DNA from: an uncultured Candidatus Peribacteria bacterium
GTDB taxonomy: Bacteria; Patescibacteriota; Gracilibacteria; BD1-5; UBA2023
Length of the DNA stretch: 64,000 bases
Assembly: GCA_964540725.1 (NCBI GenBank)
Contig: CAZINU010000001.1
Location: 159,419-223,418 of the forward strand
Direction: 5' to 3'
The translations under genes were made by a program, and so were the position numbers. Each line of letters starts with the position of its first letter. The stretch's first letter is position 1. Below are positions 5,444 to 54,515 of the stretch, piece by piece. Below the pieces are notes generated by a model. The model worked only from the letters and a program-made list of their open reading frames with translations. It was not told the origin of the DNA and made no database searches.

Positions 5444-5941
5444 CTATCTCCGCTCACTCACCATTCTCCGGGCGTCCCGGTCGAGATCGCGCTCCTTCAG
5501 GACCTGCTTTTTGTCGTAGGCCTTTCGGCCCCGGGCGAGGGCGACCTGGATTTTTGCCAAATTCCCCTTGAAGTACGCTTCGGTCGCGATGAGCGCGACG
5601 CCCTTTTCCTTCACTTTCCCTGCGAGCCGGTCGAGGTCCTTTCGTTTCAGAAAGAGTTCACGGTCACGGGTAGGGTCGACCGCGCCCTTGATGCCGGGGG
5701 CGTGGGAATATGGGGAAATCCGCATGCCCGTAACGACGGCGCGGCCTCCGGCAATGATTACGTAACTGCCTTTGAGGTTGCATCCGCCTTCGCGCAAGCT
5801 CTGTACCTCCCACCCGAAGAGCTTGACGCCCGCCTCCAGCGTTTCGAGCACTTCGAAATCGAAGAGCGCCTTCTTGTTCTGGGCGACCTGGGTGATTTTC
5901 GGGGAAGGGCGTTTGGATTCGGACATTTTGACTTTTGACAT
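5444..5941 (-). CDS. smpB: SsrA-binding protein SmpB
   Basis: The product has QNKKALFDFEVLETLEAGVKLFGWEVQSLREG, ISPY and ALIATEAYFKGNLAKIQVALARGRKAYDKK. The start is ambiguous (ATG at 5974, 5941 or 5926). The stop is TAG. Confidence 0.9.
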   Translation of the reverse strand: MSKVKMSESKRPSPKITQVAQNKKALFDFEVLETLEAGVKLFGWEVQSLREGGCNLKGSYVIIAGGRAVVTGMRISPYSHAPGIKGAVDPTRDRELFLKRKDLDRLAGKVKEKGVALIATEAYFKGNLAKIQVALARGRKAYDKKQVLKERDLDRDARRMVSERR

Positions 5942-11262: not shown

Positions 11263-13197
11263 CTACTTTCCCCGCCGAGTCAACCGTTTTTTCGAATCCG
11301 CTCCGGAGTCTCCCCGATCACCTGACGCCGCCGTTTCCGGCTCGAAATCGATGCGTCCGTACGCGCGTTCGACCGAGACGAGCCGAACCCGGAGCCTCGT
11401 TCCGAAGGCGGGAAATTCGGATTCGCGAACCCGTCCCCGTCCATTTTTCGTCCCGAGATAAACCGCCCCTTCGATGCCGTTTTCGAGTCGCACGTAGTAC
11501 GCGTAACGGGACCTTCCGACGACCGTGGCATCGAACGATTCGCCGATATGGCGTTCCATGTATCGGGCGGAGTCGAACGATTCGACCGTCCGTTCGAGTT
11601 CTTCGGCCCGCCGCTCGGTTTCGGAGCACCGGTTCGCGACTTCCGGCAGCATTGCCGCGAGGCGGGTCTTTTCGGTCGAATCGAGCCGCTTCCGTATCCA
11701 ATCCTTGATAATCCGGTGGGCGACCAGGTCGGGGTACCGGCGGATGGGCGACGTGAAATGGGTGTAGTACTCGAGTGCGAGGCCGTAGTGGCCGAGCGGC
11801 TTTTCCGAATACCGGGCTTTCGAGAGTTTCGAAAGGAGAAGCCGTTCGACGGGCGGAAGGTTCGGAATCCGTTTGAGGGCGGAATACGCTTCCCGAACGT
11901 CCTTGGGCCGCGCTCCGGATTTCGGGAACCGGATGCCGTACGACGCGAACAGTTCGGAAAGTTCCAGATTCTTTTCTTCGGACGGCGGTTCGTGCACGCG
12001 GTAGATGAAGGGGGCGAATTCGGAGAGGGATTTCGAAATTTCCTCGTTCGCGATGACCATGAACGTTTCGATGAGCCGGTGCGAAGCCACGCGTTCGCGT
12101 TCGCGGATTTCCAAAGGCTCGCCGGAGGCGTCGAGTTCCACTTTCAATTCCGGCAGGTCGAAGTCGATCCGCCCCTCTTTTTCGCGGCGCCGGTCGATTT
12201 TTTCGGCGAGTTCGTAGGCCGAATCGACGAGCGCGAGAATTTCCGGGGTCGGCGCGGCGGACGAACGGTCGCGTTCGTGCCAGGCTTGGACTTCTTCGTA
12301 CGTGCAGCGCCGGTTCGACCGAATTTCGGTCTCCTCCAGCCGCTTCTTCCGAACGTTCCCGTCCGGGTCGATTTCCATGAATACCGACAGGCAGAGCTTC
12401 CTTCCTCCCGGATGGAGGGAGCAGAGGTCGTTCGAGAGCCTTTCCGGAAGCATGGGCACGACGCGGTCCGACAGGTAGCACGACGTTCCGCGTCGGAACG
12501 CCTCCCGGTCGAGCGGACTTCCGGCTCGGACGTACTCCGCCACGTCGGCGATGTGGACGCCGAGTTCGTAACGTCCGCCGCCCAGGCGCTCCACGGAGAT
12601 GGCGTCGTCCAAATCCTTCGCGTCGGCGCCGTCGATGGTAATGACGACGCGGTCCGACAAATCGCGTCGCCTCGGGGCCGAATCGGCGTCTTCGGACAAT
12701 CGGGAAGCTTCCGAAAGGACGCGCTCCGGAAAGACCGTGGGAATCCCGCTTTCGCGTACGAGGATTTCCCGCTCGGTCCGAACGTCGTCGGAACGCCCGA
12801 TGCGTTCCGTGACCGTGGCGTTCGTTTTCGCGCCGAACCCTTCGACGCGTACCGAAACCGTTTCGCCATCCCGGGCGCCGCCGATGCGTTCCATGGGAAC
12901 GAAGAGGCGGGCGCCCTCCGGAACCTTGGTCTCCACGAAGGCGTACGGCCGTCCGCGGACGGGTCTGAGGATTCCGAAAATCGGTCCTGGCCCGCGCCGG
13001 AGGATTTTTACGATCTTCGCTTCGGCATCCCGCCCTTCTTCCGCCCGGCGTACCGGTACCGCCTCAACGCCATCGCCGTCGAACGCGTCGCCGCGGTTTC
13101 GGGATCCTACGAAAAAGACCGTCCCGTCCTCGGATTCGAGTCGGCCGTATCTCGGGTCGGTTTGGCGGTAGGTTCCGCGGATGGGGCGCTTGGACAT
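11263..13197 (-). CDS. rnr: Ribonuclease R (RNB family 3'-5' exoribonuclease with C-terminal S1)
   Basis: A 644-aa ORF with ITIDGADAKDLDDAIS and HFTSPIRRYPDLVAHR RNB motifs and a C-terminal S1-like segment. Confidence 0.9.
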   Translation of the reverse strand: MSKRPIRGTYRQTDPRYGRLESEDGTVFFVGSRNRGDAFDGDGVEAVPVRRAEEGRDAEAKIVKILRRGPGPIFGILRPVRGRPYAFVETKVPEGARLFVPMERIGGARDGETVSVRVEGFGAKTNATVTERIGRSDDVRTEREILVRESGIPTVFPERVLSEASRLSEDADSAPRRRDLSDRVVITIDGADAKDLDDAISVERLGGGRYELGVHIADVAEYVRAGSPLDREAFRRGTSCYLSDRVVPMLPERLSNDLCSLHPGGRKLCLSVFMEIDPDGNVRKKRLEETEIRSNRRCTYEEVQAWHERDRSSAAPTPEILALVDSAYELAEKIDRRREKEGRIDFDLPELKVELDASGEPLEIRERERVASHRLIETFMVIANEEISKSLSEFAPFIYRVHEPPSEEKNLELSELFASYGIRFPKSGARPKDVREAYSALKRIPNLPPVERLLLSKLSKARYSEKPLGHYGLALEYYTHFTSPIRRYPDLVAHRIIKDWIRKRLDSTEKTRLAAMLPEVANRCSETERRAEELERTVESFDSARYMERHIGESFDATVVGRSRYAYYVRLENGIEGAVYLGTKNGRGRVRESEFPAFGTRLRVRLVSVERAYGRIDFEPETAASGDRGDSGADSKKRLTRRGK

Positions 13198-13286
13198 GGC
13201 TTTGGTCCCGAGAGTATACCGCGCAAATTCCCAAAAGCGAATTTCCCGCGGTTTTGATTTTTTGGGAACCGGGGTAGAATCCCCCC

Positions 13287-13784
13287 ATGGACCTCGCCAA
13301 TCTTTCCCCCGAAAAGGCCGTACTGCTCGTCGGAATCTTCCTCGGCCTTTTCTGGCTCTTTTCCGGATGGTTCCGGAAGTCCGGTTCCGACACGCTTCGA
13401 GCGCCCGGAGGATTGGAATCGGGCGTTGGCCGGATTTCCGATTCGCGCACCGATTGGGATACCGGATTCGATATTTCCGGAACCGGCGCGCCGAAATTCG
13501 GTTCCCGAAGTTCCGCCAACGCGAACGTTCCGAAGTCCGGCTTCGAACGGACGATCGACCGGTGGGTGGGGGGAATTCTAGCGGGGAGGGCGTCGGTCGA
13601 AGTTCGAAGGAAGTTCCAAGAATCGCCCGCCGCGGCCATCGTCGGAGCCGTTTTTTGTTTCGCGTTCCTTTCCGAAATCGTTATCGCCGCCGCCGTACTC
13701 TTTGCCGCCTACGCGGTCATGAAGTGGAAGGGCGGCCGATCGGACGAACTGTACGGCATCTTCAAAGGCATTCCCCCGAAATAG
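13287..13784 (+). CDS. Hypothetical membrane protein
   Basis: A 165-aa ORF with hydrophobic segments at both ends. I recognised no motif. Confidence 0.5.
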   Translation: MDLANLSPEKAVLLVGIFLGLFWLFSGWFRKSGSDTLRAPGGLESGVGRISDSRTDWDTGFDISGTGAPKFGSRSSANANVPKSGFERTIDRWVGGILAGRASVEVRRKFQESPAAAIVGAVFCFAFLSEIVIAAAVLFAAYAVMKWKGGRSDELYGIFKGIPPK

Positions 13785-13787
13785 GCC

Positions 13788-14063
13788 ATGCGAACGCTCT
13801 TCGTCTCTCTTCGCGCCGCGCTCCTCACCCTGGTTTTCCTGTTCGGCCTCCTGTACGCCGTCGTCGGATTCGGGTATTTCGGAGTGTCGCTGTATTTCTG
13901 GAATTCCGACTTTTTCGCGTCGGCGATTCCGGCCGCCTATACCTTCTTTATCGGATTCGTCGGCATCGCCGTTTCGGTAGTGTCAGCCCGGCAACTTTCC
14001 AAAGCCAACCGCGAATGGGCCCGGCCGCGGTCGGATTCCCCCGAAGCCGAACCTTCCGAATAA
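13788..14063 (+). CDS. Hypothetical small membrane protein
   Basis: A 91-aa ORF with two or three predicted TM helices. It starts 4 nt after the previous stop. Confidence 0.5.
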   Translation: MRTLFVSLRAALLTLVFLFGLLYAVVGFGYFGVSLYFWNSDFFASAIPAAYTFFIGFVGIAVSVVSARQLSKANREWARPRSDSPEAEPSE

Positions 14064-14072
14064 CCCAAGCCT

Positions 14073-14873
14073 ATGGAATCGAAATTTTCCCTTGCCCTGG
14101 GCGGCGGAGCCGCCCGAGGACTCGCGCATATCGGCGCCATCCGCGCGTTCGAGGAATCCGGTTTCCGGCCATCGGCCGTCGCCGGCACCAGCATGGGCGC
14201 TATCGTCGCGGCGTTGCTCGCGTTCGGAAAAACGTCCAGCGAAATGGTTGGAATCGCGGCGTCCGTACCGTATTTCAAACTGCTCGACTCCGATCTTCGG
14301 TCGGGACTCATCGGTGGGAAAAAGATTGAAAAATACCTTCGGACGCTTTTTGGAGACGCGAAGATCGAAGACGCGAAGATTCCGCTCGCCATCGTCGCAA
14401 CCGATATCCTCACGGGCGGGAAGCGGGTATTCCGGGAAGGCGACGCAGTATCGGCCATTCGGGCTTCCATCGGAATTCCGGGCGTTCTCAAGCCCTTCGA
14501 ATACGATGGAACGCAGTACGTCGACGGCGGGATTTCCGAAAACCTTCCGGTCGAAGAATTGCCGGACGGTCCCGTACTCGCCGTATCGGTCTTGCGCGAC
14601 GTCGGCCGGCCCATTAAAACCCGGGCGAAGGTTCTCGGATTCGAATGGAACCACGCCATCTTCGGCATGGGATACCAGATTCTCCAAAAGACCATCGATA
14701 TCATGATGGCGCAAAACGAGGCCCGATCCCTCGCGAGCCGCCCGGGCGTCACGCTCCTCCATCCCAGGTTCGAGGGCATCGATTACTACGAATTCCATCG
14801 ACATGCCGAAATCGTCCGAATCGGTTACGAAACCGCCAAGGCCGCGGCGGAAACCCTCCGTTTTCCAAAATAA
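14073..14873 (+). CDS. Patatin-like phospholipase
   Basis: The product has LALGGGAARGLAHIG (oxyanion GGGxRG), GTSMG (GxSxG nucleophile) and a later DGG motif. Confidence 0.85.
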   Translation: MESKFSLALGGGAARGLAHIGAIRAFEESGFRPSAVAGTSMGAIVAALLAFGKTSSEMVGIAASVPYFKLLDSDLRSGLIGGKKIEKYLRTLFGDAKIEDAKIPLAIVATDILTGGKRVFREGDAVSAIRASIGIPGVLKPFEYDGTQYVDGGISENLPVEELPDGPVLAVSVLRDVGRPIKTRAKVLGFEWNHAIFGMGYQILQKTIDIMMAQNEARSLASRPGVTLLHPRFEGIDYYEFHRHAEIVRIGYETAKAAAETLRFPK

Positions 14874-14954
14874 TCCCCATGATCTTCCTTCTTATCGCCG
14901 CCGCGTTCGCCGCCGCGCTGGCATTCGCCTTTTACTCGAAATAACCCGCGACCC

Positions 14955-15665
14955 ATGCAACGGTTTTATCTTCCCGACGTTCCGACGGAAACGGTTACCG
15001 CGTCCGATTCCGCGTTCGTCCACCAAATTTCGCGCGTACTCCGGTGCGCGCCCGGAGATCGCGTCGTGCTGTTTTCCGATGCCGGAGGGGGCGAATACGA
15101 AATTCGGGAAATTTCCAAAAAATCGGTTTCGTTCGTCCGGATTCGCGCGATCGCCCCTTCGTGCGACCCGGGGATTTTTATAACGCTCTACCAAGCGCTC
15201 CCCAATCGGTTCGAAAAAATCGAATACCTCCTGCAGAAGGGGGTCGAGGCCGGAATTTCGGAATTCGTATTTTTTCCGGCGGAACGTTCCCAAAAACTCG
15301 TCGTAACGCCCGCGAAAATCGAACGTTTCGAATCCATCGTCCGGGAGGCGCTCGAACAGTGCGGAGGGTTCTGCCTGCCGAAAATCCGTTTTGAAAAAGG
15401 GTTCCCCGCCATTCCGGAATGAATGTCCGCCGTATTCCTCCATACGGCCCCGGAGTGCCGGAGCATACGGGAGTTCCTCCGCGGAATTCCCCTGGAAACG
15501 CGTTCCGTCGGAATGTTCGTAGGACCGGAAGGGGGCTTCTCCGCCGACGAGCTCGCCCGGTGCCAGATTCTCTCCGCCGTTCCCGTGCGGGCGGGCAATC
15601 GGATTCTCCGAACGGAAACGGCGGGCGTCGTCATGGCGTTCTGCTTGCTCCGAATGATGGAATAG
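14955..15665 (+). CDS. rsmE: 16S rRNA m3U1498 methyltransferase RsmE
   Basis: ORFs 14955-15422 and 15423-15665 share a frame and are joined by the TGA at 15420. The product starts MQRFYL and carries EQCGG and FVGPEGGFS...RILRTETA SPOUT motifs. Confidence 0.85.
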
Positions 15666-15745
15666 GCGTTTTGACTTTTTCGTTTCCGTCCGTACGATAC
15701 GTTCGTCCGGGATTTCCGCGAAAACAGAAAAGGAAGGAGTGAACG

Positions 15746-15925
15746 ATGGAGCAAATCCTCCAGATGTTGCCCGCAAAAGTCGCCATGGTCTTCGGAGCGT
15801 TCGTCTCGACGTTCGTTTCGGCTGCGGCCATTGGCGTTCCCACTCCGATGGCCGTAACGGGAGGTTTCCTCTCCGCCCTGGTCGTCGCCGCCACCACCAA
15901 CCTCGCGCTCCTTCTCGGGGATTGA
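15746..15925 (+). CDS. Possible 59-aa hydrophobic peptide (SD-led) ending in TGA
   Basis: GGAGTGAACG-ATG has a GGAG SD. The product is MEQILQMLPAKVAMVFGAFVSTFVSAAAIGVPTPMAVTGGFLSALVVAATTNLALLLGD. It is followed by TGA and then a terminator 15 nt later. Under table 25 the frame stays open for more than 600 codons. Confidence 0.3.
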   Translation: MEQILQMLPAKVAMVFGAFVSTFVSAAAIGVPTPMAVTGGFLSALVVAATTNLALLLGD

Positions 15926-15940
15926 CCCCGGCGGACGCGA

Positions 15941-15968
15941 AAAAACCGGCGCTTAGGCGCCGGTTTTT
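15941..15968. terminator. Bidirectional rho-independent terminator
   Basis: A5-CCGGCGC-ttag-GCGCCGG-T5. The loop contains the TAA that closes the read-through form of the convergent gene. Confidence 0.6.
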
Positions 15969-17434
15969 CTTTTCTGGGAGGGGACGTTCTTTTTTCGGAT
16001 TTTTTTCTGGACCTTCGCTCCGTCCAACTTCGCTCCCGAAGGATCTTCGCTGACGTAGAGGGCTTCGTCGAACCATTTCGCCCGACGGGAGAGCGATTCG
16101 AACGGTTCGGTCAGAAGCTCGTGGCTCCGTCATTCGTAGTAGGAAACCTCGGTCAGCTTTCCGTCCGTTCCGATTTTTCCGCCGACGATGATGCCCGTAT
16201 GCTGTCCGACGTACCCGACGACGCCCCTTCCTTCCGGAGTCGTCCATTCGAGTCGGGCGAATCCGCGGTTCGGATCGTCGGTCATCGCGTACCAGAATAC
16301 GACGGGGTTTCCCTTCGCGAGACTTTTCACGATGGAGGCCGCGTCGAACGTGCCCTTGTCGATCTTCAATCCGTACCGTTTCAATTCCCTTCGGACGTAG
16401 GGGAGGGTCCCGTCGGCGTGGATTCCGTATCCGGTCAGCTTTTTCGGATTGGAACTCTGCCGACCGTCGATCCGTCCGACGAACCCCTTTTCCGGATCCG
16501 ACCATACGCGCGCTCCGCCCCGGTATTCGGGAAGTTCCGGAAACGAAGGGAGAAGGAGGACGACGGCTTCCTCCGCGATGGGGGATTCGCCCTTTCGGAG
16601 CCGATACGAATTCAGGAGGTCGCGGAGGGAGTTCGATTCGCACGAAAGGGGGTAGGCCTGCTTCGTATGCGGGATGTTTCCGGGAACGGAGAGTTTTCCG
16701 TCGAAATTCAGGAACCGTTTGCGGGCATAGGCGTACGCCGCGAAGTAGCGGGTTTGGGGGCCGACGAGCTCCCGTTCGATCGTTTTGCGCATGGCGTCGA
16801 CTTTTGCCGCGTCAAAGACCGGAATCCCGAGTTCCTCGAGAGTTCGGAGGGCGGCTTCGTCGGAGGGCGCCGAGGTCTTTCCTTCGTACGCCTTCCGAAT
16901 CGCGGCCGGCAGGGTTTTTCGACGTTTTTCCACGGATTTCGAAACGTCGCCTCCCGCTTCCCTCAGGGAAAGGAGGATATGGGCGTACGCTCCGAACAAC
17001 GCCCCGTCCTCCTTGAGGGCGGGCGCGGCAAGAATGCGTTTTTGGAGGTTCGCGAGATAGGCGGGATGGATTTCGGCCTTCGCGTCGATTTCCGAGACCA
17101 TCTCGAAGTTGGTGCGGAAGCGTTCCCTCGTCTGCGCCGGAGCGTTCCCGTACCGGGTGAGCACGTAGGCCGGAAGGCGTTTCTTCGCGAGCGCGTCGGC
17201 CAGCCGGTTGAGACTCTCCGCCGCGCGGAGCTTGCTTTCCCCGCCCGTTCCCGACATCCCGTCCGTTTTTCGTTCCGGAGCGGGAATTCTTTCGGATACG
17301 GGGGAGGGGATTCCGGTTCCGGAACCCGATTCGGATTCCGTGCCGGAAAGCGCTTCCGTCGGCCAGGCGGCGGAAGCGAGGAGGGCGGCGGAGGAAATCG
17401 TCGCGGCCGCGAAGGCCGCCGGGGCGAGGCGCAT
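15953..17434 (-). CDS. Secreted protein with C-terminal C39-like (papain-fold) peptidase domain
   Basis: A signal peptide (MRLAPAAFAAATISSAALLASAAW) begins at ATG 17434. The C-terminal region has QAYPLSCESNSLRDLL...GQHTGIIVG. A TGA at 16130 precedes 58 more codons to TAA at 15953. Confidence 0.6.
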
Positions 17435-17526
17435 GCTTTTGGATCGATTTCGGCGGAGTATAGGCACGTAAGGGCGTTTGTCGAAAAAAGGCGCCCGATT
17501 TTTCGGATTTCGGATATCATGCCGCC

Positions 17527-18360
17527 ATGGATGCCAAGATTTATGCCCACCCTTCGGTGCTGGACGGAAATTTCGGAAACAACGCGTTCGGACGTTTTTC
17601 CGACGCTCCGAACGAACTGTTCGTTCCGCACCGGACATTCGGAACCCTGGACGACGTCCGCCCCGGCTCGAAACCTGCCTTTCGGGAATTCGGAACGGGC
17701 GGTTCGCCGGTCGAATATCCGGGATTGGAGGCGTTCGTTTCCGCCCGGTGGAACGGAATTCCCCTTCACGTGTTCGATAATCACAACCACGCGCTCGCGT
17801 TCTGGTGCGAAGCGTTTTCGAACGGCGTTTTCGACCGGGGGGCGATTCTCGCGCATATCGACATGCACTCCGATCTTTGGCCGAACGAAAGCGATCTCGA
17901 TCTTTCCCGATCGGGCGACGCCGCCTACGTGGAAGCCTTCGTGAACGAAAAAACCTCCGTCGGAACCTACGTGGAGCCGGCCATGCGTTCCGGAATGTTC
18001 GCCGAATTCGTTCGCGTTGAAGGGGAGGGGGACCTGCGTCGGGAATGGGCGAACGTCGGAATCGGAAAGTACGGTCCGGAAGTCTTTCCCAATGCCGTCG
18101 AATCTCCGAACGCCCCCGTTGCCGAAGTTCGCGACAACCTTTCGGAAGGTCCGTACCGGGGTGGGAAGCCCTTTCCGGACATCGTGTTGAATCTCGATCT
18201 CGACTTCTTCGCGCCGGATCTGGAGGACGTTCCGTTCGAATTGAAGCGGGACGTCATTTTGGCCTTCGCCCGGCGTTCGAAGGCAATTACCGTCGCCACG
18301 AGCCCGTGCTTCATCGAGCCGGGTCGGGCAATTTCGGCGCTTCGGAACATTTTCGGATAG
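17527..18360 (+). CDS. Hypothetical protein, UPF0489/arginase-fold-like metal-binding motifs
   Basis: The 277-aa product has HVFDNHNHALAFW, HIDMHSD and LDLDFF. The family assignment is from memory only. Confidence 0.5.
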   Translation: MDAKIYAHPSVLDGNFGNNAFGRFSDAPNELFVPHRTFGTLDDVRPGSKPAFREFGTGGSPVEYPGLEAFVSARWNGIPLHVFDNHNHALAFWCEAFSNGVFDRGAILAHIDMHSDLWPNESDLDLSRSGDAAYVEAFVNEKTSVGTYVEPAMRSGMFAEFVRVEGEGDLRREWANVGIGKYGPEVFPNAVESPNAPVAEVRDNLSEGPYRGGKPFPDIVLNLDLDFFAPDLEDVPFELKRDVILAFARRSKAITVATSPCFIEPGRAISALRNIFG

Positions 18361-18457
18361 AAGGGTACGACCTTTCGGCGCTCCGGGGCAAGGCATGGAA
18401 AAGAACGAATTTTTTCCAATTCCGAAATTCGAAAAACGATGTCCGTGGACGAAGAAT

Positions 18458-18483
18458 GAAAAACCCCGCCCTTTCCGGGCGGG
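18458..18483 (-). terminator. Rho-independent terminator directly after the E1-like gene
   Basis: On the minus strand CCCGCCC-ggaaa-GGGCGGG is followed by GTTTTTC. It begins 10 nt after the TGA at 18494. Confidence 0.65.
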
Positions 18484-18493
18484 TGGAAACTCG

Positions 18494-19312
18494 TCACTTC
18501 GCGGCACAAACGCACTCCGGGTGCGGAGGCAGTTCGAACCGACGGCTCGAAAGGGGCGCTTCGAGAATTCCGGGGATGCCGGAAACCGAGAATACGATCC
18601 AGTTCGAACCGATGGGCGGAAGGGCGTGTTCGGTTCCTTCGAGCAGGAGATCGAGCGAAGCCCGCGAAGCGGTCTTCGCGAGAAACGACTGGTCGATACC
18701 GATGCCCGGAGCCGTTTTGGCATCGCGGGAGGAAGAACAGTCGGCCTTCCCGCCGGTTTTGCGGAACGTTTCGAGAAAATCCTTTCGGTTTTGGTATTCG
18801 AGGAAGCACGAATAACAGGCCGATTTTGGTCGGCAGACGAGAATTTCGCCTCCGCACCCGCGCTCGAACATGCTGACGAACACGGCGGCCGTTCCCGATT
18901 CCCTCGCGATTTCGCCGGAATAGGCGCGCGAAGCGTCGGTATCGGTTCCGACGACGACGAGGTCGGATTCCGCGACCGCCCGTTCGAATTCGGTACGGGC
19001 ATCGAAGACGCTTTTCGGAAACGCGAGAACGTCCGGAAGCGGCTCGAGCGAATACCGTTCGAGGAGCCGCTTGGCCGCCTCGGCTTTGTTTTGGCCGACG
19101 TACTCGGCTCCGCATGCGTGGCGGACCAGGTTGCCGGGCTCGAGGACGTCGCCGTCGAAGAGCCGGAACCGTTCGATTCCGCACCTGAAGAGGTCGAGCG
19201 CGATTTCGGCCGCCCCGCCGAGACCGACGACGGTCACGGTTTTTCCGGAGAGCGGGGCATGGAGGGGGTCCCGGCGCGCGTTGGGTTGGCGGTAGGGCGA
19301 TTCGGTACGCAT
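18494..19312 (-). CDS. E1-like ThiF/MoeB-family adenylyltransferase
   Basis: AAAGGA-N6-ATG lies at 19312. The product has GKTVTVVGLGGAAEIALDL (Rossmann GxGxxG), FDGDVLEPGNLVRH, VVVGTDTD and a CYSC motif. It ends in TGA. Strict table 25 would extend it to TAA at 18287. Confidence 0.8.
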   Translation of the reverse strand: MRTESPYRQPNARRDPLHAPLSGKTVTVVGLGGAAEIALDLFRCGIERFRLFDGDVLEPGNLVRHACGAEYVGQNKAEAAKRLLERYSLEPLPDVLAFPKSVFDARTEFERAVAESDLVVVGTDTDASRAYSGEIARESGTAAVFVSMFERGCGGEILVCRPKSACYSCFLEYQNRKDFLETFRKTGGKADCSSSRDAKTAPGIGIDQSFLAKTASRASLDLLLEGTEHALPPIGSNWIVFSVSGIPGILEAPLSSRRFELPPHPECVCAAK

Positions 19313-19418
19313 GGAAGTTCCTTTCGCGGTTCGTTCTTTCCCGTCCGGAGTTGCCGGGTTTCGGGAGGGCGTTGTGGCGTCCGAGCGAGATTCTCGCGTT
19401 CGGACGCCGGATTCCGCC

Positions 19419-19667
19419 TTATCGGCGGCATTTCGCGAAGCTTCGGAAGTTTCGGCCGATACGGGAGAAAAAATCGGCGTCTCCGCGTTCGGCGGCCTCT
19501 TTCGCTTCGGGGGTGGTATCGGCCGCCACCGCTCCGCCGGGACCGACGACGAGCGACGTCGACTCTCCCCGGGTAAAGGGGAGGATGAGCCGTTCGGTCG
19601 CCGTGACGTCGACCGTGCGGCGGTGGCCGTCGATGCCGAGGTCTTCGAGTTTGAGGGGTTGTGCCAT
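19419..19667 (-). CDS. Small 82-aa protein between the E2-like and E1-like genes
   Basis: It has AAAGGAG-N6-ATG and a TAA stop. There is no C-terminal GG and I recognised no motif. It is in frame with the upstream E2-like ORF. Confidence 0.45.
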   Translation of the reverse strand: MAQPLKLEDLGIDGHRRTVDVTATERLILPFTRGESTSLVVGPGGAVAADTTPEAKEAAERGDADFFSRIGRNFRSFAKCRR

Positions 19668-19724
19668 GGTTCGCTCCTTTCGTTTGGCATGGAAAAAGGG
19701 GTTCCGGCCGTCTGGCCGGAACGT

Positions 19725-20189
19725 TCAGGCTTCGGGGAGTATCCACTTCCCCGTCGCGAGTTTTACCTCGTAGGCGTGGAGCCAAGCGGCCGCGAGGTTC
19801 AGGACGGTGACGACCGAGAACTTCGTTTCCCAGCCTTGTCCCGAGGCTCCGTCGGGCTTCATGACGCAGAGAACGATTCCGTCGGAATCTTCGTCGTACC
19901 CGAGATGGTGGAATTCGTGCATCCCGGAGGATTCGCACGTTTCGATCACGTCGGAATCGCAGACGGCGACCCTCGGATAGGCGTAGGGATACTCCTTCGG
20001 ATACTCCGCCCGAACCCGGTACGCGTTCCCGCTATGGGTAACGAAGAACCCTTCGGCGAACAGCCGGTCGCCTTCCGTCATGAGGCGGAAGGCCGGGAAC
20101 GCATCGGCGAGCATGTCGTGCTCGTACGCGAGGCGCTTCAGGTATTTTTCGGGATTCGGTTGAACCCAGTTCGGAAGTACGGCGTTCAT
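19725..20189 (-). CDS. Prokaryotic E2-like (UBC-fold) protein
   Basis: It has AAAGGAGA-N4-ATG. The 154-aa product has EYPKEYPYAYPRVAV followed by HHLGYDEDSDGIVLCVMKP (candidate catalytic Cys) and a W...VLNLAAAWL helix. It ends in TGA. Confidence 0.65.
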   Translation of the reverse strand: MNAVLPNWVQPNPEKYLKRLAYEHDMLADAFPAFRLMTEGDRLFAEGFFVTHSGNAYRVRAEYPKEYPYAYPRVAVCDSDVIETCESSGMHEFHHLGYDEDSDGIVLCVMKPDGASGQGWETKFSVVTVLNLAAAWLHAYEVKLATGKWILPEA

Positions 20190-20219
20190 GGTTTCTCCTT
20201 TCTTTTGAGATATGGGGGC

Positions 20220-21425
20220 TTACGAGAGTCCCTCCGGAACTTCGCCGTCGCGGGGGACGGCGTTCCGGCGTACGAGTTCCGGACGGCGGGGCGGTTCGTT
20301 CCGACGGTTCGAGGTTCCTTCGCGGAGGGCGTCGGCTGAAGCCCTCGCCCTTTCCCGCCTTTGACGTATGACCTCCGAAAACCAATTCGGATCCGACGTC
20401 CGCCTACTGCGTTGGACTGGGGGTTCCGATGAGGAAGCGTCCGGCTCGGCAGTTTCCGGGGGGTTCGTCGGAAGGGGTACGGAACCGGCGATTTCCGGCG
20501 ACTCCGGGGGGTCGAAAGATTCCGGACGGCTTGGAGTTTCGCCGTTCGTTCGGAACGCCTCCCGTTCGTTTCTCGAAGGCCGGCCCGACCGTGGCGCACG
20601 CACGAGCCGGCGCCCGGAGCCGTTCGCCGCGTACGGCGGAACCGGCCAGTCGCCGTCTCCGCCTTCGCTTCTTGGTCCCTTCCACACCCGCTTCCATACG
20701 AAAACGGCTGCGGCCGCGAGCATGCCGGCAACGGCAAGGGCGGCCATTCTTCCGGGCGGTTTGGAAAAATCTTGCGGCGGACGGATGGGCGGATGGTCGA
20801 ACCCACCCCCGTTTTCAAGGGGTTCCGGGCTCGGTTCGGACTTCGGAGCGACCGAATCGCGGTAGACGGGCGCCGGGGCAAAATCCCTTTTCGCGGCGGC
20901 CGGAGAGGGGGGTGAAAATTTTTCGGCCCCTACGGCGGCCATCGACGGTTTCGGTCCGGTCTTCGGCTCCGATTTTTCGGCTGGTACGATCCATTCCGTC
21001 GCGGGTTTTGGCGCTATTGCCGCCGTGGACGGACCGTTTTCGGAGGGCTCCCGATCGACGGTTCGTTCGGCGGCATTTTTCGCCGACTGGGCGAGCCGTC
21101 CGAAGGTTCGGACGGCCGTTTCGAGCGTTTCGAGCGTCGAAATCCGTTCGTCCAGGGAAACGGATTCGTCCCGGTACGCCTGATGCGCCATCGTCGCGTA
21201 TTTGTCACGAAGGTCGGCCCCCATTCCCGAAATCTCCCGCCAACGGGCGGACGTTTGGGAATTCGGATCGGATTCGGCCAATGCGGCAAGTTTTTCGGCG
21301 CTCGCCGTTCCTTCCGCGGTCTTCTTCGGCAGTTCGAACGCGAATGCCGACGACCAGAAGAGAACGGCGAAAAGTACCGATACGAACGCGGCTGGCCGGC
21401 TGTTTCGAAAAGAAGTTTCCATCAT
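20220..21425 (-). CDS. Hypothetical membrane-anchored Pro/Ser-rich protein
   Basis: AAAGGA-N5-ATGATG. It has an N-terminal signal/TM (AAFVSVLFAVLFWSSAFA), a mid TM (MAALAVAGMLAAAAVFVW) and a TAA stop. Confidence 0.55.
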   Translation of the reverse strand: MMETSFRNSRPAAFVSVLFAVLFWSSAFAFELPKKTAEGTASAEKLAALAESDPNSQTSARWREISGMGADLRDKYATMAHQAYRDESVSLDERISTLETLETAVRTFGRLAQSAKNAAERTVDREPSENGPSTAAIAPKPATEWIVPAEKSEPKTGPKPSMAAVGAEKFSPPSPAAAKRDFAPAPVYRDSVAPKSEPSPEPLENGGGFDHPPIRPPQDFSKPPGRMAALAVAGMLAAAAVFVWKRVWKGPRSEGGDGDWPVPPYAANGSGRRLVRAPRSGRPSRNEREAFRTNGETPSRPESFDPPESPEIAGSVPLPTNPPETAEPDASSSEPPVQRSRRTSDPNWFSEVIRQRRERARASADALREGTSNRRNEPPRRPELVRRNAVPRDGEVPEGLS

Positions 21426-21679
21426 TCCCGTCCTTTCATGGCTTGGATGGATTCGAAGATCGCCCGGGCCCGTTCGCGTTTTTTCGCGGAATCGGCGATT
21501 TCCGGAGAATTTCCCCGGACGAGGGGCGGTTTTTGCGGTTCGCAGGTTTTTGCGGCGACCCGGGTTCCGTCGTATCCCCGGAGAATTCCGGACGGTTCGG
21601 ACCCGAACCCGCGAATCCCCAGGATTCCGCAGCCGGAAAGGGCTATGGCGCATACGAAGGCGCAAGCGAGCGTTTTCAT
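21422..21679 (-). CDS. Small lipoprotein
   Basis: AAGGA-N7-ATG. MKTLACAFVCAIALSGC is a textbook signal plus lipobox. Its TGA stop overlaps the next start (ATGATG). Confidence 0.6.
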   Translation of the reverse strand: MKTLACAFVCAIALSGCGILGIRGFGSEPSGILRGYDGTRVAAKTCEPQKPPLVRGNSPEIADSAKKRERARAIFESIQAMKGRE

Positions 21680-21691
21680 AACGGATTCCTT

Positions 21692-22198
21692 TCAGAGGTG
21701 GTTTCGGCGGATGGCCGAGTAGAGGGGGCGGATATCCGAAACGGATATCCCAACCTCGGGTTTCCCGAGGATTTCGGCGATTTCTTCGATGCTGATTTCT
21801 CCCGCCAATTCGGGTGACGACCGGCGTACGAATACCCGGACGGCCAACGTCGGAACGTGGCAAAGGAACGAGAATTCGAACGCTCCGGTCCTCCAACCGT
21901 TCCCGGATATCCGGGCCGCGAGCCAGGGGTTTCTCCGACCGCTTTGACCTTCGGGTTCGAAACGATCCCCGAATTCTTCGGCGGCCGCTCGGAGGTTCCG
22001 ATAGGCGTCGCCGGCGACTTTCGAATTCGTTCGGATAGCTCTTCCGAGCGGTCCGCGGATGAGGGAAAAGATTCCCAGGATCGACGATTTCATGACCCAG
22101 AAGGCGGTGGCGAAAATCGCGATTCCCCGACCGAGCGGGCCGGAGAGCAGCGCCCTGGAGAGAACCTCGGCACGGAAGTATTCGTTGAAAACGGACAT
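21692..22198 (-). CDS. Hypothetical protein with C-terminal sigma-70 region-4-like HTH
   Basis: AAAGGAGG-N5-ATG. The C-terminal ELAGEISIEEIAEILGKPEVGISVS resembles an ECF sigma region 4. It ends in a TGA that overlaps the next SD. Confidence 0.45.
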   Translation of the reverse strand: MSVFNEYFRAEVLSRALLSGPLGRGIAIFATAFWVMKSSILGIFSLIRGPLGRAIRTNSKVAGDAYRNLRAAAEEFGDRFEPEGQSGRRNPWLAARISGNGWRTGAFEFSFLCHVPTLAVRVFVRRSSPELAGEISIEEIAEILGKPEVGISVSDIRPLYSAIRRNHL

Positions 22199-22233
22199 GG
22201 CCGCCTCCTTTCTTTTCTGTGGATGTTAATGAG

Positions 22234-22301
22234 CGTCCGGCGGGGTTTCCCGCCGGACGGAGGGGCGATAGCGCGCGCCTCCCCGTCCGGCGGGAAACCC
22301 C
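22234..22301 (-). promoter_or_regulatory. Three-copy alternative-hairpin element (terminator/attenuator-like)
   Basis: CGTCCGGCGGG (22234-22244), its complement (22249-22259) and a second direct copy (22284-22294) allow two pairings. One is an 11-bp local hairpin. The other is a 19-bp long hairpin (22242-22260 with 22283-22301). Confidence 0.5.
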
Positions 22302-22302
22302 T

Positions 22303-24408
22303 TTATCCGTCTTCCGTTCTGATGGAAATCGGAACCAGATCGGGGCCGTATTCGCCACCCCCCGCTCCGACCGTCTTTTCCGAGAGGTGGACGGGAAGGT
22401 TTCCGGACGATTCCGGCAAACCAGCGCTTCTTCGTCGGACGCGTTCTTCCGGAAGAACCTTCAGGACTTTCCAGAACGTCAGGAAGTATCCGCGACCGGA
22501 TTTCGCCCTGAGGACGACCGCGTTTTTTTCGAGCGCTTCCCTGGGGAGCGGGCCCGAATACGGATTGGCGATGGCGTACAAAGTGGCGAGCGCCGTTCCC
22601 GAATACATGGAGGCCGGTTCCGCCGACGGATGGTTCAAATCGCCCTCGCTCGGGCCGAACGGGGAACCGGGATGCTTGTGCCAATTGAACGGACGGCAGA
22701 ATCCGAGGAGCGGATGTCCGCCGCTCTCCGTCCCCGCCCGCTTGAGGAATTCGAGCGCGAGGGAACGCTCGTATTCGCCGTAGTCCGCCCCCATCCGTTT
22801 CCGGTAGGCGTTCCGAAAGAACGAGAGGTCCCAGATTTCGTGCGACACGGGCGTCGCGCGTTCTTGGAAGAGGTGCGGAATTTCAAGATTCGAAAGTCGG
22901 AAAACGCCGTTCGATACCGAATACGGGCTCGCGAACCAGAATCCGCCGGTTTCGTTTCCGGAACTCCGTATTTCGGGTGAATCGAGACGTTCCGCAATCG
23001 TTTCGAGGTCGCGAGTCGAAACCGAAAGTTCCGAAATTTCGCGGAACTCCCGCTGCTTTTCCCGCTCCCTTTCCGCCATGGCCGAAATCATCAGTCGGTC
23101 CAACCGTTTCGAGAGCGCCGTTTCGAACCGTCCGTTCGAAAGTTCGGCGGTTTCGAATCCGAGCGATTTCGCATGCCGTCGAATTCCGTGGTCGTACCAT
23201 GCGAGGGAAAGCGCCGAGCCCCCGTCGCCGTGCACGAGCGTCGCGGCGAAATTTCCGCCGACCGTCTCCGTTCGCATCGTGACCGATCAGGAGAGCGAGG
23301 AATCGGAAACCACGTCGGAAGGAGCGGGGGGAGAGAATCCTTTCGAAAGGAGAAATCGCACGAACGTTCGATAGGTTTCCATCCGAAGCTTCCGTTCATG
23401 GGCGATTTCCGCGAGCGGGAGACCTTCGTCCAGCGTTCGAACCGGGAGCGCGGTTTTTTCGGTTGCCCCCGTTCGGGGCGCGGTACTTCCGTTCGGAGCG
23501 AGGACGTTTCCCGATTCGTCCGAACCGTCCGTTCGCGGGTTTTTCGGAAGCCGTTCGATGGTTTCGAATTTCGGAAGGAGTTTTCGGTATTTCCGGGGTT
23601 CGGGAGCGCCCCCGACCGTTTCGCCCGCTCTCGCCGCATCGTCCGTCCGGGCTTCCGGCTTCGGGGCGTTTTCGGCATTCCGTCCATCCGGTCCGATAGC
23701 CGTTCCGACCGCTTCGAAACCGAACCCGATCCGCGTTCGCGGCGGTTGAGACGTTCGTCCGACCGAACGGCCCAGGAGAAATCCCGCGAACGCGGCGAAC
23801 GCGGCGAAGGCGAGTCCGCCGAACGCACCGGAACCGTTCGGAAGCGCTCGTTCCGGAACGCGTTCCGCGGACGCCGTTTCGCCGTTTTCCGGCGGATCTT
23901 CGACGGCCTTCCGGGCGGATTCGGAAACGTCCGAACGGTCGGAACGGGACTTTGCCACGGATTCGGCCGGTCACTTTGGAAGACCGGTCGTTTCTTCAAT
24001 CGGTTTGGGCGTCGTGCCGAAATTTTTCCGTAGGTTAGAAGGCGGAATCGCGACGCCGCCGCCCGCCCGTTCTGAAACTTCTTCCGTCGACGCTTCGGGT
24101 CGTCCGCCCGCCGTTTCCGGAACGGCCGTGACCCTCCGATTCGGGATTTCGCCGTTCTCGACGGCGGCTGGAACCGAAAGGGGGTCCTTGGGAAATTCTT
24201 CCGCCACCGTTTTCTCCGAAACCGGCCCGATCGGAGTGGGGGCCAATTCGACCGGATCCGCCTTCGTTTTCATGGGCGAGCAGGCGGAGAGGACGGCGGC
24301 GAAGACCGCGGAGCGGAGGAAGTTCGATCGGGCGCCGACGGTTTTTCCGGGCGGATTTCCGAATGTTTTCGAAGGGGGCATGAAGGCTTTTTGAAGATGC
24401 GGGAACAT
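22303..24408 (-). CDS. Large (~700 aa) putative lipoprotein/secreted protein read through two TGAs
   Basis: Fragments 23971-24408 (lipobox AAVLSAC), 23287-23958 and 22303-23277 share a frame. No SD or convincing start follows the TGAs at 23971 and 23287. The stop is TAA at 22303. Confidence 0.55.
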
Positions 24409-24484
24409 GGGCGCGGTGGTGGTACGGCGCCGATTCTCCGTCTTCCGGAAATGAAAAAAACGGAAAAAGCCACGAAAAAGCCAC

Positions 24485-24510
24485 GAAAAAACCGGGGAAT
24501 TCCCCGGCTT
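24485..24510 (-). terminator. Rho-independent terminator after the MBL gene
   Basis: The palindrome CCGGGGAATTCCCCGG is followed on the minus strand by T6. Confidence 0.6.
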
Positions 24511-24542
24511 TTTCGATTGGAACCGCGTTGGCCAAGTTCCGA

Positions 24543-27500
24543 TTACTCTCGGCCTTCTTCCATTTCGAGCATTTGTCGCATTTCCATTTCGAGCGTTTCG
24601 AAAAGTTCCCCGTTCTTGTCCATTCGGTGGATCACGAGAAGGTTTTCGAAAGATTTGAGGGGATCGCCCCGGTTCTCTTCCGCGTCGCGGGCACAGTACC
24701 GAATTTGGTCCATCGCCGCGCGAATCGGCTTATATCCTTCGAGCGAGCGGATGGTATCGTCGACCGCCATTCGAATGCCGTATTGAACGGCGGTTTCGTC
24801 AATCGTGGGAAGTTCGGAATCCCAGTCCGATTCCGAAATGTCCAAGGTATCCGGATTCTCGAGTCGGGATCGAAGTTCGGCGACGCGCTGTTCGTACGTC
24901 TTCCGGCGTCCGCGAGCCTCGTCCAGTTCGAGCGTCCGGCGCTCCCGGTTCTTTCCGAATTCGAAAGCTCGGCTCTGGTGCCTTTGGAGATCTCTCCGCG
25001 CCCAATGCAGGGTGCTGTCGCCCCCCTTTCCCGATACGTATACCCGCTTCTGTTCGTCCGAACCGAATTCTTCCCGAAGAAGCGGCGAAAGTCCGGAGAG
25101 GAGAGCGTCCCGATCGGAGAGCAGCCGTTCCATCTCCGCGATTCCGTCCCCAAGCGGCGCCGTCGCGATCGAAATCGCGCCGTCGGACGAGCCTCGTTCG
25201 CGCAGTTCCTTTCCTATTTGGAACATCCGTTTCCGAAGGGCCGATATTTGCGATTCGAGATGTTCCGGAACGTACGAGAGGATTCGGTTCAGCGATTCGA
25301 CGGCGGAACGTTCCGCCCGCTCCCTTTCCTCGAGTCTGGCGATCGCGTTTTTAATCCGCTCGACGTCGTTCTCCGCCTTAGCCTCGAGTTGTCTTGCTTC
25401 TGCAAGGTCGCGCTCAAGCTTCTTTATGGCGTCCTGAATCCGTTCTGCCTTCCCCGGACGATCAATGCCCCGAAGCGGGCGTTGTCCGGTCTGTACGAAC
25501 CATTTTACATCGTCGGAAGTTCGGAGTCCGGCGAATATTTCGGAAACCATCCGGTTTTTTTGGATGACGGATTCCCTCATCGCATGAGCCCGCTCACGAA
25601 GCGTCGTCAGGATTCCGTCGCTTTCCTCTCCGGTCGCCATCTGCCCGCTTCTTCGTTCGTGGCGTTTAGCCCGCCTCCGGTCATGCGGGTGCCGGCGTTC
25701 GACGGAGGTTTTCCGAAGTAGCTTGGACATCCCTTCGATTTCATTCTCGAGCCTCCCTATTTCCGCCTCATCCTTCCGTATCGACCGGACCAGTTCGAGT
25801 CCGTCGAGCAGGAATTTCGCGCCCACGAGCCCGACCTTCGAATGGGCCTCCGAGAACATCGATTGCAATCGGAGCTCGTAGGCGCCCAACAGTTCCCGAG
25901 CCTTCGCCGCGATTGTCTTCGCCCGCTTGGCTTCCGAGATTGCGTCGCCCGCTTCCTTTTTCGAGCCGCTCGCTCCGGGGGCGATGGGGGCTTCTCCGTT
26001 CGAGTCCGGCGTCCGCGACGGCTTTCCGCCGCCTTGCTCGTTCGTTCTTGCCGGAACGTTCCGAGGTTTTCGCGGGACGGATTCGCGAACCGTTTCCCGT
26101 ACTTTTCTCGCAACCTTTTTCCGAACCAGTTCGCTTCCGCGGAAAATGAGCCGCTCTCCGAGTTCCGGGATGACGAGGCTTTCCGGATAATACCCGTAGT
26201 CGTAGAGGAATGCCGCGAGATCCGCCTGGGCCCCGTCGTCGCCGTGGATAAGGACGATCTTCTGATTGGGCGCGAGCTTCAGGCTTTCCAGATAGGTCAG
26301 GTTGTCTTCCGCGTCGGCGTGCCCGGAAAGGAACCGGTAGCTCTCGATCTTTGCCCGGATAAGCACGTTCGCATCCTCGATTTCGACGAAACGTTCGTGC
26401 TCCGGAACGTCCGTCCGGACGTCCGGACCGTCGTCTTCCATACGCGTTCCCGTGACATTCAAGAGTTTTCGGCCCACGGTTCCCTTCGCCATGTATCCGG
26501 GAAACAGGAACGCCGATTGCGAATCGCCCCCGAAACTTTTCAAGTACGAGACGATGGGGCCGCCGTTCGCCATTCCGGAAGCGGTGACGACGATCTTCCG
26601 CTCATTCCGGTCGTTTTTGTGGAATTCCCGATCCTCTTCCGTCGAGATGATTTCGTAGTATCCGTGGCTCGGATCCAGGTATTCGATGAAGTCTTCCAGA
26701 TTCTTCCGTTCGCGTTCGAGGTAGTCGCTTCCGAGCGCGTGGCGGATGGCATCGGCTTCGGGGAGCGAGAGTTCCGAAAGCCTTCGGCGGGCTGAGAAGA
26801 CGTAATTCCGAAGGTGCTTTACGCCCGACGGGGAATCGACGTAGATTTTCACGTTCTTGTCGATCTTTCCCTCGGCCTTCAGTTTCACCGTCCGGTAGAG
26901 GATATTTTGAAGCCGGTCGAGCGAGAAGCAGCTTTCGAAGACCCGGCGATGGGTTTTCGTCCGCTCCACGAGCCCGGTTTCGAATTCGTCGCGCCCCTTC
27001 TCGAAATCTTTGCGAACCCGGTCGCGGTAGGTGGATTCGATGACCGCCACGTCGATGGGAACGTCCGCCGGCGGAACGGGAACGCCGCAGGGGTGGATGT
27101 CCCACTTGTACGACCCGACGTCGCCCGAAAAGAGCACGTGCTTGTAGTCGCCGTGCAAATCGTCGTAAATTCGAAACAGCACGCTCGTGCTTCCGATGAT
27201 GTGGCCGGCGTCGTAGAACCGGAACGCGATCTTTCCGGGGACGACGTCCTTCCAGCCGTCCGATATTTCGTGGGTGGTGATATGGTCGAACGCCCGCTCT
27301 ACCGCCGTCAGATCGTACGGGGGAGGAGGGACCTCGAACCGCTTCTTCCAATTGGCGTCGTTTCGGTCGATTCCGTATTCTTCGAGCGTTTGGATCGCTT
27401 GCCGATACCGGGTCGCCGGCGGCGCGTCGTGGGTTCTTTCCATGCGGTTTCCCGATCCGTCGGTACTTCTGGCGACCTGGGGAACCCCGTCGCCCCGGGA

Positions 27501-51447: not shown

Positions 51448-51462
51448 TAAGGGTCATAAACG

Positions 51463-51492: not shown

Positions 51493-51555
51493 CCGTTATC
51501 GGAGTTCGAACTTTTTTTCCCGCCCCCCTTCTTCTTTTTGGACCTCGTTAGAACT

Positions 51556-54497: not shown

Positions 54498-54515
54498 CGG
54501 CTTTTTTCGTCATTT

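Follow-up and report, generated by a model that had tools for sequence, protein, structure and literature searches.

Standard-code punctuation in a conserved operon of Gracilibacteria that read UGA as glycine

How can a bacterial chromosome in which UGA encodes glycine maintain an operon whose genes end at UGA? The usual view of bacterial stop-codon reassignment admits no exceptions within a genome: with release factor 2 (RF2) lost, UGA becomes a sense codon everywhere. The question is raised by a stretch of 64,000 nucleotides (contig CAZINU010000001.1 of assembly GCA_964540725.1, positions 159,419 to 223,418), here called the window, in which six consecutive minus-strand cistrons, the cassette, occupy positions 22198 to 18494. 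Each is led by a Shine-Dalgarno (SD) site, and four of them end in TGA. An earlier note on this DNA described the cassette as standard-code punctuation in a UGA=Gly genome. That description is supported here and extends to every homologous cassette found. Related loci and their genomes are cited by handles such as L002.

Code of the genome and punctuation of the operon

The genome surrounding the cassette reads UGA as glycine. Within the window, in-frame TGA occupies the Walker-A glycine of an ABC-F protein (LLLSxPNGIGKTT) and of MiaA (GPTACxKT), together with conserved glycines in an ABC signature (FSxGERQ), FolD, L9, RuvB and FtsX. In-frame TGA at conserved glycines of housekeeping proteins is the signature of genetic code 25 (UGA as glycine). 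The relatives with the cassette are likewise UGA=Gly: TGA aligns with glycine in A2M and UPF0489, the region around the EVNTIPGMT motif of the L023 Ddl contains a sense TGA, and the PAS and HisKA gene calls of L019 are broken at TGA. Across the 36 non-cassette genes of the window (13,075 codons), 18 sense TGAs account for 1.66% of glycine codons, and the stops are TAA (21) and TAG (15), never TGA. The guanine-plus-cytosine (GC) content of the window is about 58%. Its closest DnaK relatives belong to Gracilibacteria/BD1-5, with identities of 92% (genome of L008) and 83% (low-GC genome of L005). TGA at invariant glycines and these DnaK relatives together identify the organism, on sequence grounds, as a high-GC (~58%) member of the known code-25 radiation. 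The record of L008 (GCA_964482035.1) is labelled 'uncultured Candidatus Peribacteria bacterium', though its genome is UGA=Gly, with TGA standing for glycine in A2M. Peribacteria are generally treated as standard-code, and either the label or the translation table assumed for that record is probably wrong. The only tRNAs in the window are tRNA-Glu and tRNA-Gln; nothing else matched in the Rfam scan. In the wider lineage, prfB has been undetected in any BD1-5 genome (PMC6851277).

The cassette and its immediate signals, all on the minus strand, are as follows. Coordinates in brackets include the SD site.

22198-21692 (21692..22210), minus strand: c1, membrane protein of 168 residues; SD AAGGAGG (22210-22204), TGA stop (21694-21692)
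21679-21422 (21422..21691), minus strand: c2, lipoprotein of 85 residues with lipobox LSGC; SD AAGGA, TGA stop
21425-20220 (20220..21435), minus strand: c3, protein of 401 residues; SD AAAGGA, TAA stop
20189-19725 (19725..20200), minus strand: E2, protein of 154 residues with a ubiquitin-conjugating fold; SD AAAGGAG, TGA stop
19701..19722, minus strand: terminator-like hairpin, 9-bp stem and T-run, starting 3 nt past the E2 TGA
19667-19419 (19419..19679), minus strand: c5, small protein of 82 residues; SD AAAGGAG, TAA stop
19312-18494 (18494..19323), minus strand: E1, ThiF adenylyltransferase-like protein of 272 residues; SD AAAGGA, TGA stop
18458..18483, minus strand: intrinsic terminator, CCCGCCC-GGAAA-GGGCGGG (18483-18465) and T-run, 10 nt past the E1 TGA
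22242..22301, minus strand: long hairpin upstream of the operon, starting one base past the TAA of the flanking gene
22223..22229, minus strand: conserved TTAACAT motif in the context CGTTAACATCC / CATTAACATCC, 3' of the upstream hairpin and before c1

Most of what the earlier note had listed for this segment was recovered in the sequence: the six cistrons with their coordinates and features, the four TGA stops (c1, c2, E2 and E1), and the GC hairpin with T-run within 10 nt of the E1 TGA (18483-18465). The overlap of the c2 TGA with the c3 start also exists, as ATGA, but the c3 start lies at 21425 instead of 21424. L002, L019 and L020 have the same overlap between c2 and c3, and L024 has it between c1 and c2. 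The E1 TGA comes right after a C-terminal CxC motif, and hairpins equivalent to the E1 terminator follow E1 in L002, L020, L021, L022 and L023.

Initiation signals set the cassette apart as clearly as its stops. In all six cistrons, AAGGA or AAAGGAG(G) precedes the ATG by 5-7 nt. Across the window, AAGGA-N4-8-ATG has 20 matches where 5.8 would be expected, a count that none of 100 shuffles attained, and seven of the 20 matches fall within the 3.8-kb cassette stretch. Among roughly 30 other gene starts inspected in the window, no SD site was present, in agreement with the earlier claim that roughly 40 inspected starts outside the cassette have none. Many host genes instead show a TAtACT-like box, placed some 20-25 nt ahead of the ATG (upstream of 3780, 13197, 17434, 38260 and 29429, among others). 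Given the absence of SD sites, the proximity of this box to the ATG suggests that host leaders are very short and that initiation is SD-independent. Both genes flanking the cassette are host-style, as had been noted; the one at 22303-24408 lacks an SD site and contains TGA in frame twice.

Upstream of c1, the long hairpin is built on an 18-bp consensus stem common to L002, L007, L020, L021 and L022, with four compensatory pairs. Its 3' arm holds CCTCC, and the counterpart region in L002 is 3803-3870. It could be an insulator, a terminator or an operator. The TTAACAT motif lies 14-45 nt before the c1 ATG in the window, L002, L007, L019, L020, L021, L022 and L023, and is a candidate -10-like promoter element of the operon.

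At the other end of the genes, stop usage is mixed. The nine high-GC cassettes use TGA 29 times, TAA 16 times and TAG four times (59% TGA), and the three codons exchange at identical aligned terminal nucleotide positions:

c1: ...ctc TGA, TAG or TAA, at the same site in different genomes
E2: ccc gaa gcc TGA (window) or gaa gcg TAA (L025, L019), at the same site
c5: tcg ttc TGA or tcg ttt TAA, at the same site

Eight high-GC genomes have a c5 gene, and in five of them it stops at TGA. The protein C-termini are kept in genomes from 34% to 61% GC (E2 ...WILPE(A), c5 ...RSF, E1 zero to five residues past CxC), and these are therefore the true gene ends. Low-GC relatives also terminate at TGA: the E1 of L016 ends ...CSLCGS-TGA where that of L015 ends ...CSLCNP-TAA, and terminal TGAs close the E2 of L009 at codon 151 and the c5 of L005 at codon 83. 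GGN codons and fused reading frames, which the earlier note had proposed to look for in other UGA=Gly genomes, did not appear at these positions; TAA, TAG or TGA stand there instead.

Reading the window with table 25 reproduces exactly the consequences that had been predicted: c1 and c2 fuse, c2 runs 135 codons over c3 out of frame, E2 and c5 fuse in frame, and E1 is extended by 68 residues. Across the cassettes, the cistron after a terminal TGA is in frame in 8 of 25 cases, which equals chance, and selected polyproteins were rejected on that count. Extensions past terminal TGAs span 7-746 codons, with a median above 100. Backup stops are not enriched past the terminal TGAs, and TGA is often the sole stop for tens to hundreds of codons; closely spaced TGA and TAA, as TGA-CAA-TAA, occur only at the E1 of L005. 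Read-through of E1 would enter the terminator and give a non-stop message. The gene smpB, part of stalled-ribosome rescue on such messages, lies in the window at 5444-5926. A local-context rule for the meaning of UGA was also rejected, as the +4 base and the flanking 12 nt are the same for terminal and sense TGAs and hold no separating signal. Chance framing, long extensions, missing backup stops and the lack of a context rule argue that read-through products are not what selection keeps; nothing marks the fused or extended forms as its target.

The combination of an SD site and a terminal TGA is not limited to the cassette. In the relatives it recurs in Beta-CASP (L002, L021, L022), in an open reading frame (ORF) of 95-100 codons between gmk and A2M, and in a radical-SAM/SPASM gene (L023), at these positions:

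L002: 1902-3608 and 9750-10052
L021: 1815-3521
L022: 2004-3707 and 8414-8707
L023: 7163-8368

Such genes often have a terminator directly 3'. The Beta-CASP of L020 has no SD site and stops at TAA, and a TGA stop was never seen in the SD-less flank genes (CARDB, UPF0489, gmk, A2M, ArgRS). The 'standard-code dialect' may be a small gene class rather than a single operon. Directly 3' of Beta-CASP, a small conserved hairpin (CGTCCG...CGGACG) presents an SD-like loop, ACTAGAAAGGAG, at about 3640-3665 in L002 and also in L020, L021 and L022; a terminator comes next.

Absence of sense TGA and native origin

If UGA is an ordinary glycine codon in these genomes, it should appear inside the cassette genes as well. 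In the 8,431 codons of the nine high-GC cassettes, sense TGA never occurs, although 11.4 instances would be expected (P about 1e-5). The earlier note had pointed to the lack of internal TGA in the six cistrons of the window. The count is correct, but with 1.5 expected it is not significant for the window alone; the absence is decisive because homologous cassettes are included. The low-GC relatives, in which TGA is a common glycine codon, provide the sharpest comparison. Counts of TGA against GGN, with SD-less genes as neighbours, are as follows:

L005: cassette 1:50, neighbours 148:38, Fisher P 7e-26
L016: cassette 0:52, neighbours 47:18, Fisher P 6e-18
L010: cassette 0:74, neighbours 28:97, Fisher P 8e-7
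L009: cassette 0:67, neighbours 8:36, Fisher P 4e-4

TGA thus provides 18-80% of the glycine codons in the neighbours and 0-2% in the cassette genes. The lone cassette TGA of L005 is the penultimate codon of E1, within TGA-CAA-TAA. High expression does not explain the avoidance, since dnaK on the L005 contig uses TGA for 39 of its 53 glycine codons (74%). Avoidance of the TGA trinucleotide at the DNA level is likewise ruled out: out-of-frame TGA occurs at normal rates in the cassette genes, so the avoidance is frame-specific and hence translational.

The two usages can stand side by side. An SD-less gene of 806-906 codons, of which 43-51 (over 5%) are in-frame TGA, adjoins low-GC cassette genes:

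L005: 3136-5856
L015: 60-2480
L016: 1971-4403

It lies between c5 and E1 in L005 and L016 (47-51 TGAs) and upstream of E1 in L015, and in L005 and L016 the two 'dialects' are interleaved. The data show a consistent pattern of selection: within this operon UGA does not count as glycine, and it is accepted as a terminator. The pattern holds throughout the UGA=Gly radiation.

To account for such punctuation, the earlier note had offered recent transfer from a table-11 (standard-code) donor, an assembly chimera and context-dependent UGA termination, of which only the last may still hold. The distribution of the family speaks against the first. The 37 E1 homologues (246-289 residues, each ending no more than five residues from the CxC motif) are all on contigs of the window's lineage, as is every E1 relative above 43% identity; next come actinobacterial proteins of 427 residues that are 32% identical. 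Among 5.8 billion proteins searched, there were no table-11 relatives. In L002/L008, L007, L020, L021 and L022 the cassette keeps its chromosomal surroundings, clpB - CARDB - Beta-CASP - cassette - UPF0489 - gmk - A2M, and the location of the cassette is not variable within the high-GC clade. Components occur in low-GC L005, L009, L010, L016 and L017, also led by SD sites: a c1-like membrane protein, a lipoprotein, a c3-like protein, E2, c5 and E1. A metagenome scan for cassettes gave 10 loci, all low-GC.

Substitution and composition point the same way. Between cassettes, dS is at least 0.87, so that synonymous sites are saturated, and dN/dS of 0.12-0.40 indicates purifying selection. Relative synonymous codon usage (RSCU) correlates between cassette and host at 0.940, against 0.945 +/- 0.021 for random host subsets, and the tetranucleotide correlation is 0.953, with other chunks at 0.90-0.98; an island at 51-59 kb of the window scores 0.755 and 0.797, respectively. 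Neither the deviant composition nor the deviant codon usage of a recent island is present in the cassette, and its GC content follows that of the host from 0.38 to 0.64. Conserved synteny, saturated dS, purifying selection and host-like composition, together with the missing table-11 relatives, refute recent transfer. As for phage or mobile-element hallmark genes, PHROGs gave no meaningful matches and an IMG/VR scan a single weak one, and a phage origin was rejected. The chimera proposal fails as well: an independent Logan assembly (SRR5011273) matches window positions 12494-25312 at 100% identity, both cassette junctions included, and separate contigs from NCBI, JGI and Logan show the same arrangement of genes. 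By all these comparisons, the operon is native and vertically inherited in the Gracilibacteria/BD1-5 radiation.

The flanking gene at 22303-24408 encodes 701 residues without a family match and stands between Beta-CASP and the cassette only in the window lineage; Beta-CASP directly adjoins the cassette in L002, L020, L021 and L022. Beta-CASP itself is 1126 residues long in the window and about 568 in those four loci. The island at 51021-59272, beside tRNA-Gln (51373-51447), has a GC content of 0.44-0.53, compared with about 0.58. Its genes include those for a large serine recombinase, a C-5 DNA methylase and a restriction enzyme of the EcoRII-C type, each with 9-11 in-frame TGAs. The island resembles a mobile element for restriction-modification that was integrated from a low-GC donor with the UGA=Gly code. 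In this it reverses the cassette, being host-style in its code but foreign by composition. Elsewhere in the window, a direct repeat of 257 nt (36581-36837 and 40841-41097, 99% identical) copies the 3' end of a MacB-like ABC ATPase gene. The repeats bracket about 4 kb of lower-GC DNA with a rhodanese protein and an ABC transporter, which is probably an insertion with target duplication.

Protein content and relation to known systems

Two of the six products have recognisable relatives. E1 matches Pfam ThiF (3.7e-19) and the PADLOC E1-E2 model of the cyclic-oligonucleotide-based antiphage signalling system (CBASS; 1.9e-25), and its best solved relatives are the Cap2 structures 7TSQ, 7TSX and 7TO3. 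E2 matches the PADLOC E2 model PDLC00877 (3.2e-12), has a precomputed assignment to PF26395 (E2-CBASS), and conserves the motif HHLG...G-I-V-L-C-V and the C-terminus WILPE(A). For c1, c2, c3 and c5, no Pfam or PADLOC family was matched, nor did c1 match any PHROGs family. Homologues of c1 are nonetheless present in high- and low-GC relatives, and L010 has a lipoprotein homologous to c2. The c3 protein combines an N-terminal signal or transmembrane segment, a coiled region, a C-proximal transmembrane segment and a disordered tail; its length varies from 179 to 401 residues across genomes, with analogues in L005, L010 and L016. The c5 family is kept from 34% to 61% GC and usually ends ...RSF or ...SF, or with short extensions, but never GG; the window member has five extra residues relative to the family. 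A homology search with c5 returned two proteins, too few for a deep alignment, and its single-sequence AlphaFold model is of low confidence (predicted local distance difference test score, pLDDT, of 53), so that no beta-grasp fold can be demonstrated from it.

No cistron contains a cyclase domain of the cGAS/DncV-like nucleotidyltransferase (CD-NTase) type by Pfam or PADLOC; the one match to a PADLOC cyclase model came from the E2 cistron and covers only the C-terminal E2-like part of that model. Likewise, Pfam, PADLOC and PHROGs revealed neither a Cap3/JAB peptidase nor a known effector in the operon. The envelope proteins c1-c3 could be effectors. Taken together, these assignments describe a Cap2-like pair split into E2 and E1 and accompanied by a small partner protein and three envelope proteins. 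By sequence comparison, the operon falls outside the definition of CBASS, and probably outside those of Bil and Bub as well.

The closest known system is type II CBASS, whose Cap2 (a fused E2-E1) is the nearest relative of both enzymes by profile and by solved structures. In the cassette, however, E2 and E1 are separate genes with a gene for about 80 residues between them, CD-NTase, Cap3/JAB and a recognised effector are missing, three envelope proteins are encoded upstream, and the family is restricted to Gracilibacteria-type genomes. The ubiquitination-like defence operons Bil and Bub have separate E1 and E2 proteins and a small protein. The cassette shares this arrangement, but its small protein usually ends in Phe rather than Gly, and no deubiquitinase-like peptidase is encoded.

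With respect to the code, precedents exist in which UGA is both sense and stop within one genome, namely Condylostoma among ciliates and Blastocrithidia among trypanosomatids. In these eukaryotes, the reading of a UGA depends on how close it lies to the 3' end of the mRNA, and there is a release factor that recognises UGA. The cassette differs in that the split follows gene class, the organism is bacterial, and RF2 is reported absent from the lineage. Among elements of UGA=Gly hosts, in-frame TGA is missing from most predicted phages of Gracilibacteria, and the code-11-compatible phages predicted for Gracilibacteria and Absconditabacteria resemble the cassette in this respect (Liu et al. 2023, PMC10746230). 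Those phages stack several different stops at gene ends, which the cassette does not; the cassette is also chromosomal, syntenic, vertically inherited, host-like in composition and devoid of phage genes. Alternatively coded phages provide a second parallel, with two codon meanings per cell, gene classes split by stop usage, and decoding changed by phage-encoded RF2 or RF1 (Borges et al., 10.1101/2021.08.26.457843). In those systems a standard-code host meets a recoded phage that brings its own suppressor tRNAs and release factors. Here the arrangement is reversed: the host is recoded, the host operon is standard, and no switching factor was identified. A metaproteomics paper on groundwater Gracilibacteria makes no mention of ThiF, ubiquitin or TGA.

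When UGA would not mean glycine

Which conditions could have shaped such an operon? Tentatively, we favour the explanation that its fitness is decided in a regime where UGA is not decoded as glycine. In the normal state, host ribosomes would pass the terminal UGAs and make fused, out-of-frame or non-stop products that are probably inactive. Decoding of UGA as glycine might be switched off or overridden, for example by a phage-encoded RF2 or by loss of tRNA-Gly(UCA) in infection or stress, and correct translation would then be limited to messages that are SD-led and contain no UGA. Because prfB is undetected in BD1-5 (PMC6851277), the relevant regime is unlikely to be ordinary growth. With less confidence again, UGA may have two meanings per cell, split by cell state or mRNA class, with the operon written in the 'invader's code'. 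If so, the genetic code itself would act as an infection sensor, and the operon could be translated properly, perhaps with correct termination and activity as a result, only when glycine decoding is abolished or a phage RF2 is present. A bolder variant has the operon expressed in a standard-code prey cell.

Some observations link the operon to defence and to known code switching: E1 and E2 are closest to CBASS Cap2, prfB is undetected in BD1-5 genomes, most predicted phages of Gracilibacteria lack in-frame TGA, and RF2 is encoded by phages in other systems. Several points weigh against an infection-dependent regime. No RF2, anticodon nuclease or other code-switching factor lies near the cassette, and we know of no phage of the lineage with RF2. 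Searches of PHROGs and of viral contigs gave no support. In the operon, CD-NTase, a JAB peptidase and a recognised effector are all lacking, so that a defence role is suggested by analogy, and the other SD-led, TGA-ended genes (Beta-CASP, the 95-100-codon ORF and the radical-SAM gene) are not obviously defence genes. Expression limited to infection would still need an external release activity at the terminal UGAs, and nothing points to silence or harmlessness of the operon in uninfected cells.

The co-occurrence of SD-led initiation with TGA ends in the cassette, Beta-CASP, the small ORF and the radical-SAM gene, and never in the SD-less flank genes, also fits a mechanism of normal cells that makes UGA a stop on SD-led mRNAs and glycine on all others. 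It might consist in a cryptic release activity (RF2-like or ArfB-like), in specialised ribosomes linked to SD-dependent initiation, or in a life-stage switch in the supply of tRNA-Gly(UCA). Terminators directly after terminal TGAs and the conserved ATGA stop/start overlaps agree with this explanation as well. We nevertheless consider it doubtful: sense and terminal TGAs share the same +4 base and nearby context, and we know of no precedent in bacteria that ties initiation mode to stop-codon meaning. The reported absence of prfB from BD1-5 genomes (PMC6851277) adds to this doubt.

Somewhat less probable is that UGA always means glycine, that fused and extended products are tolerated, and that internal TGA is missing for another reason. 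Read-through is the biochemical default without RF2, some extensions are as short as 7-27 codons (L002, L023), and in the window alone the lack of sense TGA does not reach significance. Yet this view leaves unexplained a frame-specific absence of TGA next to neighbours at 18-80% and a dnaK at 74%, as well as 59% TGA termini where SD-less flank genes have none. Many extensions would cover hundreds of codons out of frame across downstream cistrons, and E1 would run into its terminator to yield a non-stop message in a genome that carries smpB.

A further explanation moves translation into another cell: after transfer of DNA or RNA, the operon would be expressed by a partner with the standard code and SD-led genes, namely a host or prey cell of this epibiotic lineage. 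T-DNA genes, which carry eukaryotic expression signals, provide the analogy. This single idea would cover the SD sites, the lack of sense UGA and the mixed UGA, UAA and UAG stops, and the operon does encode a lipoprotein with a classical lipobox and membrane proteins. It is improbable all the same. The gene lists of the fetched loci contain no transfer machinery, origin of transfer (oriT) or relaxase, although no search was aimed at them; the operon is fixed at a syntenic chromosomal site, and other SD-led, TGA-ended genes are scattered. To our knowledge, such bacterium-to-bacterium delivery has no precedent.

Very little weight falls on a foreign cassette, whether acquired in a recent table-11 transfer or through repeated exchange with a standard-code reservoir. 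Standard-code punctuation and SD sites would suit such a source, and code-11-compatible phages are predicted for Gracilibacteria (PMC10746230), but the synteny, saturated dS, purifying selection and composition matching hosts of both 34% and 58% GC contradict it, as do the lineage-restricted E1 relatives, the distance to the next actinobacterial proteins and the single weak viral match. An assembly chimera or other artefact, which nothing but the oddity itself would favour, can be dismissed in view of the identical Logan assembly and the independent contigs.

The locus has direct consequences for annotation. Gene calling with table 25 fuses or extends the cassette genes, while calling with table 11 fragments their neighbours, so that automated annotation is systematically wrong at such loci. 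Being conserved, the locus also provides a concrete target for proteomics or ribosome profiling. For the biology of the lineage, its meaning is broader. A conserved chromosomal operon resists the genome-wide rule for UGA across the Gracilibacteria radiation, from 34% to 61% GC. This resistance suggests that under some condition UGA is not decoded as glycine, be it in these cells or in others with which they interact, and it bears on the encounter of recoded organisms with standard-code phages, on recoding as a genetic firewall and on the evolution of codon reassignment.

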